Of a stretch of 64,000 bases of DNA, positions 37,991-43,645 are shown one piece after another. Numbering within the stretch: position 1 is the stretch's first letter; each line of letters begins with the position of its first letter. The notes below the pieces were generated by a model. That model was not told the DNA's origin. It saw only the letters and a program-made list of their open reading frames with translations, and ran no database searches. Position numbers and translations under genes: made by a program. Source of the DNA: an uncultured Candidatus Saccharibacteria bacterium (GTDB lineage: Bacteria > Patescibacteriota > Andersenbacteria > UBA10190); assembly GCA_964562905.1 (NCBI GenBank), contig CAZLVG010000001.1:2297-66296 (forward strand). The letters are read 5' to 3'.

Positions 37991-38458
37991 GTGAGGGAGC
38001 ACAATAGAAACATGCCCACCCTGGCTTACAACCGCCGGGCTAAATTTGACTACCACCTCCTGGAAACACTGGAGGGAGGGCTGGCGCTGCTCGGCACTGA
38101 AGTAAAATCGGCTAAAGCCGGCAATCTAAGCCTGCGCGGAGCTTTCGTGACCATACACCATAATGAAGCTTACCTTACCAACGCCACCATACCGCCCTGG
38201 CAGGTAAAAAATACGCCCCGCGGCTACGATCCCGCCCGCCCGCGCAAAGTACTGTTGAAAAGAAGTGAGCTTAAGCACCTTATCGGCAGTAAACAATCAA
38301 AAGGCTTGACAGTTATCCCTATAAGCGTTTATACTAAAGGACCGCGCGTAAAGCTTGAACTGGCACTGGCCCGGGGAAAAAAGAAGCATGACCGCAAACT
38401 GGAGAAAAAGGAAAGAGACATCCGGCGCGAGGTGGCCAGAACGTTGCGCGGAAAATAG
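37991..38458 (+). CDS. smpB: SsrA-binding protein
   Basis: Motif NRRAKFDYHLLETLEGGLALLGTEVKS. Length 155 aa. It lies immediately upstream of the tmRNA. Confidence 0.95.
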   Translation: MREHNRNMPTLAYNRRAKFDYHLLETLEGGLALLGTEVKSAKAGNLSLRGAFVTIHHNEAYLTNATIPPWQVKNTPRGYDPARPRKVLLKRSELKHLIGSKQSKGLTVIPISVYTKGPRVKLELALARGKKKHDRKLEKKERDIRREVARTLRGK

Positions 38459-38859
38459 GGGCGCGTTATGGCCTCGACGGGTTGTTGTTTACCCAATCTG
38501 CGTGCTGTGTGCTGTGAGCCGCTCACATAAATAAAAGGGTTCACCAAAGTTCAAGTGCGAACTTATTTAAGCGGGTGAAGACGGCTTTGGCCCCTTCATT
38601 TGCTACCGCTGCCGCTTAAACACCGGCAGCCATCGCCTCGCTCCTGCCGCCGGGCGCGAGCAGCGGTGCCAGATCAGGCGGATAGGGCGGTTTGGTTTGA
38701 GAGACAAGCTGCCTGACTTAAAGCACATTCTCCTCACGTGCGCCTGAAGTCTTTGCCGGTCTGTTGCTGCCCGCGTACGTAAAACTGCCAGACCGGCTAC
38801 GCGCGTAGATGATTGCGTATCCACATCCCGCACGCGAGTTCAACTCTCGCCGCGTCCAC
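38459..38859 (+). ncRNA. ssrA: tmRNA (ssrA)
   Basis: The 5' end GGGCGCGTTATGGCCTCGACGGG matches the tmRNA 5' consensus. The 3' tRNA-like end has T-arm GCGAG-TTCAACT-CTCGC. Acceptor 3' strand CGCGTCC pairs with 5' GGGCGCG, including the G3:U70 alanine identity pair. Discriminator A is followed by CC. An internal reading frame ends ...FATAAA-TAA, resembling a proteolysis tag. Confidence 0.85.
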
Positions 38860-39416
38860 CGACCTTCGCTCTCCATCTTTGGCGGAGGGTGCCGTCCACA
38901 GCCTCCGAGCTTTAGCAAGGAGCGACGGACGGCTGCAATAATTGCATGCGGCAATATGTTTATGTATTGCGGAATAACAGAAAAGATCAGCAAACAGATA
39001 GCCTGAATAAAAGGCTGCAGCAACATAACCAAGGTGCGTTCCAGCAACAACAGATAGTAGGCCTTGGTACGTCCATTGGTTCTGCGGATTCAGAACAAAG
39101 AAGGAAGCGCTAATCTTCGAAAAATATCTTAGGGGCGGTTCAGGCGCCATGTTCAGGTATAGGCATTTAGCGCCAAAACAGTAACCCCTAGGCTTCGCTT
39201 TCCGTAAGCCAGCGGCTAGTTTTGACAAATCCAGCCCTAAGCCGAATGAAGCTTAAGATGAACGATAACATAACGGAGATACTGGCATTTCCTGGAAAAG
39301 GAGAGTTTTTTCGCTTTGCCTCCCGGTCGGCTTTCCACAGCCTCCCGGCCGGCAGCGCGCGAGATTTTTCAAGCCCGCGACTATAATACCCAGGACATTT
39401 AAGTTACGGTTACTGT

Positions 39417-39917
39417 GTGTTTAAGTTCTGCCCGCGCTGCCGGAGAAAAATACGGAAAAGGCGCGACCGCTACGAATGTGCGAGCTGCGGGTTTTGTCTT
39501 TTTGTTAACCCGCCGGCCGCTGTGGCCGCCATAATTTACGACAACCAAAGACAAGTTCTGCTAACGCGAAGGGCCCGCTCCCCGCGCCGGGGATATTGGG
39601 AACTGCCGGGCGGTTTTGTTAACACCGGCGAATCGGCGGAGGAGGCGCTGCGGCGCGAAGTGCGCGAAGAGCTGGGAATATATTTGAAGTCCAGCCGTTA
39701 TCTGTGCTCCCGCCCTAATGTGTACCGCTACCGGAAAATGACTTACCGCCCGTTGGACCTGTTCTTCACCGCGCCGCTGCCGCCGGCAGCTAACATTGCC
39801 CCAGACCAAAGTGAGGTGTCCCGCTGGCGCTTGTTCCCCCCGCCGGAGGTGCCCTGGTCCAACATAGCCTTTAAATCCTACCGGCCCGTGCTGCGCCGCT
39901 GGTTCCAGCCGTCTTAA
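39417..39917 (+). CDS. NUDIX hydrolase with N-terminal zinc ribbon
   Basis: CPRC...CASCG zinc ribbon, then NUDIX box GGFVNTGESAEEALRREVREELGI. Confidence 0.85.
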   Translation: MFKFCPRCRRKIRKRRDRYECASCGFCLFVNPPAAVAAIIYDNQRQVLLTRRARSPRRGYWELPGGFVNTGESAEEALRREVREELGIYLKSSRYLCSRPNVYRYRKMTYRPLDLFFTAPLPPAANIAPDQSEVSRWRLFPPPEVPWSNIAFKSYRPVLRRWFQPS

Positions 39918-39960
39918 GGGACGCAACCGCGCCTGCACTTCCGCCCCGCCAATACAAATC

Positions 39961-39990
39961 ACGAGTTGCGAATTACGGATTACGAACCAC
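39961..39990. repeat. Dispersed ACGAGTT(A/G)CGAATTACG motif copy (upstream of infC)
   Basis: acgagttgcgaattacggattacgaacc matches the heptad arrays at 3574 and 60723. Confidence 0.6.
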
Positions 39991-41320: not shown

Positions 41321-43645
41321 ATGAGCAAAATATTAGTAACCGGCGGAGCAGGATTTCTGGGCAGCCATCTGTGCGACCGGCTAGTACAACGCGGAGATGA
41401 AGTCATATGTGTGGACAACTTTTTCACCGGCCAGAAAAGAAACATCACCCACCTGCTGAAAAACCCTTTGTTCGAGCTTATACGCCACGACATCGTGGAG
41501 CCACTGGCGGTGGAAGTAGACCAGATTTACAACCTGGCCTGTCCGGCCTCGCCGGTACATTACCAGCACAACCCCATCAAAACCATAAAAACTTCCACGG
41601 TGGGCATGGTTAACATGCTGGGGCTGGCCAAGCGCGTGGGAGCTCGGCTGCTGCAGACATCCACCTCGGAAGTTTACGGAAATCCCGCTGTCCACCCCCA
41701 GCCTGAAACGTATTGGGGGAACGTCAATCCTATAGGAACCCGCTCCTGTTACGATGAAGGCAAGCGCGTAGCCGAAACCCTGTGCATGGATTACCACCGG
41801 CAGAACCATGTTGATATTCGCATTGCCCGGATTTTCAATAGCATCTTAGCCAATGAAACAGTCTTACTATTCAACAACAAGCACATTCACACAGAGTCAA
41901 TAGAAAAATACGTCGATTCTCACCTAGCCTCGCGCCTGGATCCGAACCCGCCACGCGTACTGATCCCCACGTTTGATCCCAGATCATGCCGAACCCGCTT
42001 AGCAGAGGCAAGCGCAGTCACCAAACACCGATGCAGAACCGATTGTTATGAACTCTCACTCCGCTACGGCAGAAACGTCAAAGTCACTGGAGATCACAGC
42101 GTGTTCACCCGAGGACAAAACGGAAGGCCCACGGCAATACCAGTACGCCAGCTGAGTGTTGGTGATTACGTAGCCATCCCGGCAAAGCTGCCGGTAGTCG
42201 AGCAAAACCGCCAACGCGTAGAGCTTGGTGAAGCCCTGCTCCGGTCACTACCAGATACCGAATTATGGGACTACGCAGTACGTGCTACAACTCTTCAAAA
42301 AGTCATTACAGAACGGCGAAACGAAATCATAAAAATTATAGAAAAAAGCAGGCGATTTAACGCCGAACGGCAGCGCAATGCTTACACATGCGCCTACAAT
42401 AAATACCGACGAAGATCACTCCTGCCACTCTATGTGCTCAAACGTCTCCGCATTTCAGTACCCAAAGAAGGCAAAATTCGCGTGTACAAATCCGGCGCAC
42501 ACATCTGGCTTCCCGCCACCATCAATGTCACACCCGATCTACTGTGGTTGATCGGCCTTTTCATCGCGGAAGGAACATCTCACTTCCAGAAAGGAAAGAG
42601 CGCGTTTATATCCCTCTGCTCCGACGAGCACCTACTCAAACGAGCACAAAAAATTCTTGAAGCGCTTGGTTGCCATGTTGTGTATCGTCCTGCCTATGAT
42701 AATAAGGGACCGTCTATCTTTGCGCACTCAAAACTTCTGTACTTTCTGTTTGACCACGTCCTAGACATCTTACCCGACAAGCAGTTCCCAGCCTGGATTA
42801 TGCAACTACCACTCTCAAAAATAAAGCACGTCCTAGAAGGATACCGCGAGGGAGACGGCACGCACAGTGGTAAAAAAATAGGCAGCGAACTCTGTTTCAA
42901 CACTACGAGCAAAAACCTGGCAGACCAGTTAACCTATACCCTTCTACGCTTTGGCATTGTCGCTTCAGTTGGCAAGTACAACACTACCTTCAGAAAGCGC
43001 TATGAGAACCGGCGGTTCCCATTTTATAGAATAACTATTTGTGCGCTAGACAATTTCGATATACTCAGTTGGGACAGCAAAGTTCAACAAACCCTCAACG
43101 CCAAAAGAACTGGCGATATCGTGTGGTCAAAAATCAGAAGCATTAAACCAGTCGCCAGATCAGCCTACGTGTACGATTTCACCGTCCCAGGCTCTGAAAA
43201 TTTTATTGCCGGCAATGGGATATTTTGCCACAACACCTACGGTCCCCGTATGCACCCGGCAGACGGCCGCGTCGTCAGTAATTTCATCATGCAAGCTCTG
43301 GAGGAAGCGCCCCTCACGGTTTACGGAGACGGCAGCCACACCCGCTCTTTTTGTTACGTGGATGACATGGTAGAGGCTCTTACAAGGCTCATGGATCAAG
43401 AAAAGGAGACGGGGCCGGTTAATCTGGGTAACCCCGAAGAAACTTCCATGCGGGAGCTGGCCCGCCTAATCATAAAATTGACTCGCAGCCGCTCTCCCAT
43501 CTCCCGTCATCCCCTGCCGGCCGACGATCCCCAAAAACGGCGCCCCGACATAACGAAAGCCGGACAAATTATTAACTGGCGGCCGGGCACTTCCCTAAAG
43601 GCGGGTTTGCAAAAAACTATTGCTTACTTTAAGAGCTTGCCGTAA
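41321..43645 (+). CDS. UDP-glucuronate decarboxylase / UDP-xylose synthase-like extended SDR, interrupted by an in-frame intein (host protein ~309 aa + 465-aa intein)
   Basis: N-extein: [19 protein letters not shown]...YDEGKRVAE...RIARIFN. C-extein: [49 protein letters not shown]. The two exteins are contiguous in UXS/RmlB-like homologs (ARIFNTYGPRM). Confidence 0.85.
41840..43234 (+). mobile_element. Intein with LAGLIDADG homing-endonuclease domain, inserted in the UXS-like gene
   Basis: Block [11 protein letters not shown] (Ser1), block [12 protein letters not shown], two LAGLIDADG motifs ([11 protein letters not shown] and [11 protein letters not shown]), C-terminal blocks [22 protein letters not shown], and +1 Thr. 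The insertion point lies within the conserved RIFN|TYGPR substrate-binding motif. Confidence 0.85.

Follow-up and report, generated by a model that had tools for sequence, protein, structure and literature searches.

An interrupted UDP-glucuronate decarboxylase gene

The DNA analyzed here, hereafter called the window, is a stretch of 64,000 nucleotides of contig CAZLVG010000001.1 from an uncultured Candidatus Saccharibacteria bacterium that GTDB places in the Andersenbacteria. It carries an open reading frame (ORF) for a 774-amino-acid protein in which the two parts of a sugar-nucleotide enzyme are separated by 465 amino acids lying between the motifs ARIFN and TYGPRM. The original prediction, made from the letters of the window, had read this ORF as a UDP-glucuronate decarboxylase (UDP-xylose synthase, UXS) gene interrupted by an intein, and the length of the ORF, the limits of the insert (41840-43234) and the flanking motifs were all confirmed. 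The coordinates of the features are given in Table 1.

When the insert was removed from the translated sequence, a 309-amino-acid product was obtained, of which residues 3-306 aligned to human UXS1 (4gll/2b69) with 423 bits and an E value of 8e-126. The sole gap in this alignment was one residue near position 230, and no gap was found at the splice junction. The sequence ARIFNT[F/Y]GPRM is unbroken in human UXS1 (hUXS1), whereas in the window gene it is split into ARIFN and TYGPRM. The GxxGxxG Rossmann motif and the Thr/Tyr/Lys triad of the short-chain dehydrogenase/reductases (SDR) were present in the spliced extein in its alignment to hUXS1. All six residues described for the hUXS1 active site, Thr118, Ser119, Glu120, Tyr147, Lys151 and Arg277 (PMC3438964), were identical in the spliced extein, where they occur in the motifs STSE, YDEGK and DDPQKR. 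The insertion point follows the Asn equivalent to hUXS1 Asn176, since the two numberings differ by a constant +3. The Arg of GPRM was considered as the catalytic Arg277 and rejected, because in the numbering of PMC3438964 that residue lies in DDPQKR. In the NCBIfam search with the spliced extein no model reached its cut-off; the best was dTDP-glucose dehydratase (125 bits, cut-off 365), and no UXS-named model was among the 12 families listed. Because the NCBIfam cut-offs were not reached, the assignment to UXS is based on the signature residues and the match to hUXS1. By this evidence the host gene is a predicted UDP-glucuronate decarboxylase/UDP-xylose synthase of the extended SDR type. The RIFNTYGPRM sequence across the insertion site was nearly invariant in intein-free relatives and is among the most conserved UXS motifs.

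The insert is a full-size intein with a nested endonuclease

The insert matched the Pfam Intein_splicing (PF14890) and LAGLIDADG_3 (PF14528) models with 76.9 and 51.1 bits (cut-offs 35.8 and 22.5, respectively), and the Pfam Epimerase/GDP_Man_Dehyd domains were split, with one part on each side of it. The NCBIfam model TIGR01443 (intein_Cterm) matched residues 616-639 with 33.8 bits (cut-off 15.6), and the precursor also gave partial matches to many intein-containing models. The possibility, raised along with the original prediction, that the segment has no significant similarity to Hint and LAGLIDADG domains thus did not hold, and the search proposed for such domains returned models above their cut-offs. 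All of the predicted hallmarks were present: Ser1, block B (VTGDHS, with Thr83 and His86), two LAGLIDADG motifs that both keep an acidic residue at position 8 (Glu244 and Asp339), and FCHN followed by Thr at +1, the pattern of a class-1 intein. A class-3 intein was ruled out, because Ser1 is present and invariant and block F has no WCT triplet. A DNA transposon or insertion sequence was also ruled out, because the intein borders have no direct or inverted repeats; neither target-site duplications nor terminal inverted repeats were found at them.

In the PDB sequence search the best match to the insert was PI-PkoII (2cw7, E 6e-21), followed by the TFIIB, V-ATPase, RadA, CDC21 and DnaB inteins. 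An AlphaFold2 model of the intein, computed from 24 diverse family members, had a pLDDT of 91.8 and a pTM of 0.90. With this model Foldseek also returned PI-PkoII (E 8e-30, TMq 0.72), together with TliVMA, PhoVMA, PI-PfuI and PI-SceI. The central domain of the model resembled I-DmoI-DNA complexes (TMt 0.60-0.66) as well as the endonuclease domains of PI-PkoII and PI-SceI. The matches to solved inteins and to I-DmoI indicate that the predicted structure combines the Hint fold with the double-motif LAGLIDADG fold. PI-PkoII, the Pol-2 intein of the T. kodakarensis DNA polymerase, shares the full-size class-1 architecture, the nested double-motif LAGLIDADG endonuclease and an additional region for DNA recognition, and both inteins presumably begin with Ser-Ile-Leu. 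In contrast, the two are only approximately 20% identical, their lengths are 537 and 465 amino acids, and PI-PkoII resides in an archaeal family-B DNA polymerase whereas the host of the UXS intein is an SDR sugar-nucleotide enzyme. The VMA1/V-ATPase inteins PI-SceI, TliVMA and PhoVMA likewise consist of a Hint domain into which a LAGLIDADG endonuclease is inserted, with fold matches of E 2e-18 to 1e-11, but their identity to the UXS intein is 12-17% and they occupy other host proteins. The crystal structures of TliVMA and PhoVMA are of C1A mutants, so these are Cys1 inteins, in contrast to the UXS family, which has Ser1/Thr+1 without exception.

These findings identify the insert as a class-1 intein of full size, within which a double-motif LAGLIDADG homing endonuclease is nested; protein splicing and DNA cleavage are predicted for it.

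Table 1. Features of the UXS precursor gene, in window coordinates
Feature	Position	Strand	Remarks
Precursor ORF, UXS with in-frame intein	41321..43645	+	774 aa, 87.9 kDa
N-extein, aa 1-173	41321..41839	+	Rossmann GGAGFLG, STSE, YDEGK; last residues ARIFN
Intein, 465 aa, precursor residues 174-638	41840..43234	+	53.3 kDa, pI 9.8
Block A, Ser1 as N-terminal nucleophile, family-invariant	41840..41875	+	From alignment
Block B, TxxH residues Thr83 and His86 invariant	42071..42115	+	From alignment
Linker/putative DNA-recognition region, intein aa 126-229	42215..42526	+	Mean column identity 0.47, lowest
LAGLIDADG endonuclease core, intein aa 230-400	42527..43039	+	Mean column identity 0.64
LAGLIDADG motif 1, LIGLFIAEG, acidic residue Glu244	42548..42574	+	
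LAGLIDADG motif 2, LEGYREGDG, acidic residue Asp339	42833..42859	+	
Splicing block holding invariant Asp446	43157..43213	+	
Block G, GNGIFCHN, penultimate His464, terminal Asn465	43211..43234	+	
C-extein, aa 639-774, and stop codon	43235..43645	+	TYGPRM at start, DDPQKRR (hUXS1 R277) inside
Thr+1, first C-extein residue	43235-43237	+	

Conservation of splicing and endonuclease residues across the family

When the whole precursor was used as the query, at least 120 protein clusters (90% identity) of the same architecture were found, 760-830 amino acids long and 48-59% identical to the window protein. Their named sources included Altiarchaeales, Nealsonbacteria, KSB1, Rhodothermus marinus, Thermus composti, Pyrinomonadaceae and Gemmataceae. 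The conservation counts that follow refer to the 117 of 120 clusters that could be parsed, at approximately 50% identity. The insert lay between RIFN and T[YF]G in 117/117, with a length of 453-507 amino acids (median 465). Both Ser1 and Thr+1 were found in all 117, and the terminal His-Asn in 116, the other one having Lys-Asn; homologues carrying the segment without the block A and block G residues, which the original prediction had set as a counter-case, were therefore not what was found. Block B had the form VTxDHS in 115 homologues. The acidic LAGLIDADG residue was kept at motif 2 in 113 and at motif 1 in at least 93 of them, and in a few family members it was lost (AAG, AKG or GGG). In the alignment of 24 sequences (A1), Ser1, Thr83, His86, Asp446 and Asn465 were invariant, and Glu244, Asp339 and His464 were invariant or almost so. 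The mean column identity was 0.64 in the endonuclease core compared to 0.59 and 0.73 in the two Hint lobes and 0.47 in the linker. This pattern is the one that would be expected under selection on both splicing and endonuclease function.

Two variations were noted among the relatives. The penultimate His of block G was replaced (KN, RN or SN) at loci L016, L026, L051, L052, L056, L061-L063, L065, L067, L068, L071, L078 and L080, which are mostly from Actinomycetota and have otherwise intact junctions. In addition, three UXS homologues of 1,118-1,152 amino acids (P0024, P0033 and P0045) had a second insert of approximately 332 amino acids between ...PRS and CYDEGK, immediately ahead of the catalytic Tyr, at a point equivalent to codons 142/143 of the window gene (near nucleotides 41746/41747). 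Its first residue is Cys and its last two are Gly-Asn, the residue at +1 is Cys, and LAGLIDADG-like motifs occur within it. It was not recognized by Pfam or in the PDB sequence search, and the NCBIfam matches, to DnaB (E 4.5e-6) and GyrA (E 9e-4) models that contain inteins, were only weak. This second insert probably represents another UXS intein allele, of divergent sequence.

Distribution across phyla and paralogous host genes

GTDB was scanned with the intein alignment, using one genome per species, and 341 species-representative genomes were found to encode relatives of the UXS intein. The best 80 of these 341 were fetched, and in 77/77 readable loci the intein was at the identical UXS site. 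The bacteria among the best 80 belonged to Planctomycetota, Omnitrophota, Rokubacteria/Methylomirabilales, Chloroflexota, KSB1, Bacillota, Thermus, Actinomycetota, Gemmatimonadota, Acidobacteriota, Armatimonadota and Nitrospiraceae; the candidate phyla radiation (CPR) was represented by Nealsonbacteria and Saccharimonadales, and the archaea by Altiarchaeota and Methanosarcinales. The intein closest to the window copy among the species representatives was 61% identical. The identical site at all readable loci, across many phyla, indicates one widespread site-specific intein allele and not a rarity. The original prediction had called an intein in a nucleotide-sugar enzyme of a reduced genome unusual, and this part found no support, given the at least 120 clusters, the 341 genomes and the occurrence in other CPR lineages and in archaea. 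Its reading of a canonical LAGLIDADG intein in a UXS gene was upheld; the class of host gene is atypical against the replisome bias of inteins, but the allele itself is common. The near-invariance of RIFNTYGPRM is a plausible reason why one endonuclease lineage finds targets across phyla.

A HMMER search of 1.84 billion representatives gave 2,595 intein relatives at E ≤ 1e-3, of which 62 were at E ≤ 1e-30. Beyond the UXS copies, the nearest relatives, at 35-40% identity, occupied the homologous position RxxN/xxGP (the slash marks the insertion point) of other enzymes of the extended SDR type. One such intein (P0264, RGSN/SIL...AHN/SIGPYQYPEK) interrupts a host fragment that, when spliced, scored 279 bits on the dTDP-glucose 4,6-dehydratase (RmlB) model. 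Two related inteins were found in SDR proteins at RIFN/../SFAPGM (P0265) and RPFN/../TYGRAL (P0274). The first two of these three have Ser at +1, in contrast to the Thr of the UXS family. This distribution suggests that the intein lineage may have moved between paralogous SDR genes via similar target sequences. Related inteins of 31-35% identity, starting with SILPD..., were also found in five small proteins of approximately 160-220 amino acids after splicing (P0269, P0271, P0276, P0279 and P0304), with junctions ...F..YD/S...N/TNEE..; the exteins of these five had no Pfam match at E 1e-5.

An empty site in a syntenic relative and horizontal acquisition

The 120 closest relatives of the extein (70-82% identity, 307-337 amino acids) were all intein-free. 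Those with a name were mostly Candidatus Andersenbacteria, a lineage of the Parcubacteria group within Patescibacteria. One of the 120 relatives, at locus L082 (GCA_043811915.1), was in a region syntenic with the window and was encoded by an uninterrupted UXS gene of 310 amino acids. The gene order common to both is bPH, smpB, infC, rpmI, rplT, UXS, a hypothetical gene, PrsW, cytidylyltransferase and pilM. The named extein relatives and this synteny point to an Andersenbacteria-like CPR bacterium as the probable source of the window. When the DNA of the two genes was aligned, window positions 41321-41839 corresponded to positions 1-519 of the L082 gene and the alignment resumed at window position 43235 with position 520. 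The insertion relative to L082 is therefore flush and comprises exactly 41840-43234, 1,395 bp, with no other base gained or lost; the extein DNA was 73% identical. The empty site in L082 reads GTCGATGTGCGCATCGCCCGTATCTTCAAT before the insertion point and ACTTATGGCCCCCGCATGCACCCGGATGAC after it. The clean 465-amino-acid insertion with flush junctions that the original prediction had anticipated was thus seen both against the hUXS1 protein and against the L082 DNA.

The presence or absence of the intein at one precise site among related alleles is a homing signature. The closest inteins (60-62% identity) reside in exteins only 53-55% identical to that of the window, and the most similar intein-bearing exteins (65-68%) hold inteins only 43-53% identical. 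Over the family, intein and extein identity were uncorrelated (Spearman -0.06, n=113). The G+C content was 0.482 in the intein compared to 0.541 in the extein and 0.551 in the window. The discordance of identities together with the lower G+C content of the intein indicates that an Andersenbacteria-like UXS gene acquired the intein horizontally, by homing. The mobile homing-endonuclease lineage proposed in the original prediction gains support from the empty site in L082, the intein-free relatives and this discordance. Among 5.8 billion proteins the best intein relative was 62% identical, and no close donor is among those sampled. A phage vector was considered, but no sign of one was seen: tblastn against phage genomes gave only matches of 27% identity, to inteins in Bacillus phage helicases.

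Genomic context of the gene

The ATG of the UXS-intein ORF lies 27 nucleotides after the stop codon of rplT. Its neighbours are the housekeeping genes argS, smpB, transfer-messenger RNA (tmRNA), infC, rplT, PrsW and pilM, and the gene sits outside any polysaccharide gene cluster. No second intein was found in the window by a hidden Markov model built from the 24-sequence alignment and run on its six-frame translation, and the search for promoters and terminators gave nothing above chance. The smpB gene (37991-38458, + strand) is directly followed by the tmRNA gene (38459-38861, + strand), which was reported by Rfam (97.5 bits) and not by ARAGORN. In L081 and L082 an ORF for a 78-amino-acid GIY-YIG domain protein (positions 2716-2952) lies between smpB/tmRNA and infC; the corresponding window region would be approximately 38860-39990.

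Proposed splicing and homing pathway

The steps proposed for the UXS intein are modeled on established intein chemistry. Translation would give the 87.9-kDa precursor, in which the Hint domain, with the help of Thr83 and His86 of block B, would catalyze an N-to-O acyl shift at Ser1. The N-extein would then be transferred by transesterification to the hydroxyl of Thr+1, and cyclization of Asn465, helped by His464, would release the free, basic 53.3-kDa intein. An O-to-N shift would finally restore the ARIFN-TYGPRM bond and yield an active UXS of 34.6 kDa. In homing, the free intein would cut intein-less UXS alleles at the sequence coding for RIFNTYGPRM by two-metal catalysis via Glu244 and Asp339, and repair of the break would copy the intein into the empty allele. 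PI-SceI is the experimental paradigm of intein homing. For the UXS intein, we infer splicing, DNA cleavage and the target sequence from the conserved residues and the predicted fold.

Discussion

The reading favored here is that the UXS gene of the window is interrupted by a horizontally acquired class-1 intein with a LAGLIDADG endonuclease, with splicing, homing and target site as predicted above; it is given a probability of roughly 0.88. Several points weigh against it. The nearest relative of the intein, as noted, is only about 62% identical, with no recent donor sampled. The endonuclease of the window copy could be inactive although its motifs are intact. The nucleophiles Ser1 and Thr+1 are both oxygen nucleophiles and less reactive than Cys-containing pairs, and because of this splicing might be slow or conditional. 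Finally, the low G+C content of the intein could partly reflect the Lys/Asn/Ile-rich composition of the endonuclease and not a foreign origin.

The first of the alternatives is that the intein still splices but its endonuclease is dead, and that it persists since imprecise loss would destroy UXS, as in a late stage of the homing cycle. The lack of any close relative among the 5.8 billion proteins would fit such an immobile relic, as would the finding that the window copy is a singleton in its extein clade, and decay does occur in the family, as in the few members without the acidic LAGLIDADG residue. The window copy, however, retains Glu244, Asp339 and all invariant endonuclease positions, the endonuclease core is conserved as well as the Hint domain family-wide, and the fold is predicted with confidence to be intact. 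On this balance an immobile relic appears unlikely.

Less probable still is a co-opted intein acting as a post-translational switch, in which splicing would depend on temperature, pH, substrate or some other signal and so gate UDP-xylose production. In favor of a switch is that the intein lies within the enzyme's most conserved motif, which would presumably leave the precursor inactive, although inteins generally insert in conserved motifs. The strict invariance of the Ser1/Thr+1 pair would also be compatible with regulation, and for other inteins, RadA among them, conditional splicing has been documented (PMC4513877, PMC5790916). Nevertheless, no pointer to regulation was found in the data examined, and a selfish element fits the scattered occurrence of the intein, its absence from the site in the closest relatives and the conserved endonuclease; a regulatory role is thus considered quite improbable.

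That the insert is a permanent, non-splicing extra domain or the mark of a pseudogene is very improbable: nothing specific was found in its favor, the residues required in the four steps of splicing are all in place and do not vary among homologues of approximately 50% identity, the frame is open through 774 codons, and a retained insert would break the conserved RIFN/TYGP motif of the enzyme. An assembly or binning chimera that joined a foreign intein-bearing fragment into this metagenome-assembled contig, for which the intein G+C content of 0.48 against surroundings of 0.54-0.55 could speak, is hardly credible, as the junctions are flush and in frame, both exteins are Andersenbacteria-like and syntenic with L082, and hundreds of independent assemblies, among them complete genomes of Rhodothermus marinus and Thermus composti isolates, show the identical architecture.

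A full-text literature search, outside of which lay subscription journals and InBase, found no paper on an intein in UXS or in any epimerase or dehydratase, and the same kind of search found no intein survey based on GTDB. A precedent in the nucleotide-sugar pathway is the intein in UDP-glucose dehydrogenase (COG1004) of Euryarchaeota (Novikova et al. 2016, PMC4760082), the main text of which names no epimerase, dehydratase or UXS intein. That intein differs from the UXS intein in that its host belongs to an unrelated enzyme family with another fold and its insertion site is another one. In public records, JGI labels some proteins of the UXS intein family as 'nucleoside-diphosphate-sugar epimerase/intein/homing endonuclease'. 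The full-length Rhodothermus marinus relative (790 amino acids) is annotated as 'GDP-mannose 4,6-dehydratase' or 'hypothetical protein', and newer RefSeq entries are N-terminally truncated (598-610 amino acids) and named 'LAGLIDADG family homing endonuclease'. Relatives are thus inconsistently named, and the window gene should be annotated as an intein-containing UDP-glucuronate decarboxylase.

In kind the element is a textbook intein, and the understanding of how inteins work is unchanged by it; novelty may lie in the host gene and allele, in how broadly it occurs and in the invariant Ser1/Thr+1 pair. A broader proposal is that it represents an undescribed and unusually successful non-replicative allele, fixed on Ser1/Thr+1, that spread across domains via RIFNTYGPRM and hopped between SDR paralogues. 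This proposal is tentative and falls somewhat short of even odds. If true, it would provide a natural case of an intein that moved to a new host gene by way of paralogous target sites, and would offer splicing domains that lack cysteine and are insensitive to redox conditions. Specialists in intein evolution and protein engineering may take an interest in the strict Ser1/Thr+1 chemistry and in the copies in SDR paralogues. The window and L082 provide a clean pair of filled and empty sites in syntenic CPR-like genomes. For the family as a whole, the findings mean that the hosts of widely dispersed, cross-domain inteins are not confined to replication proteins and include a metabolic enzyme of the cell envelope.

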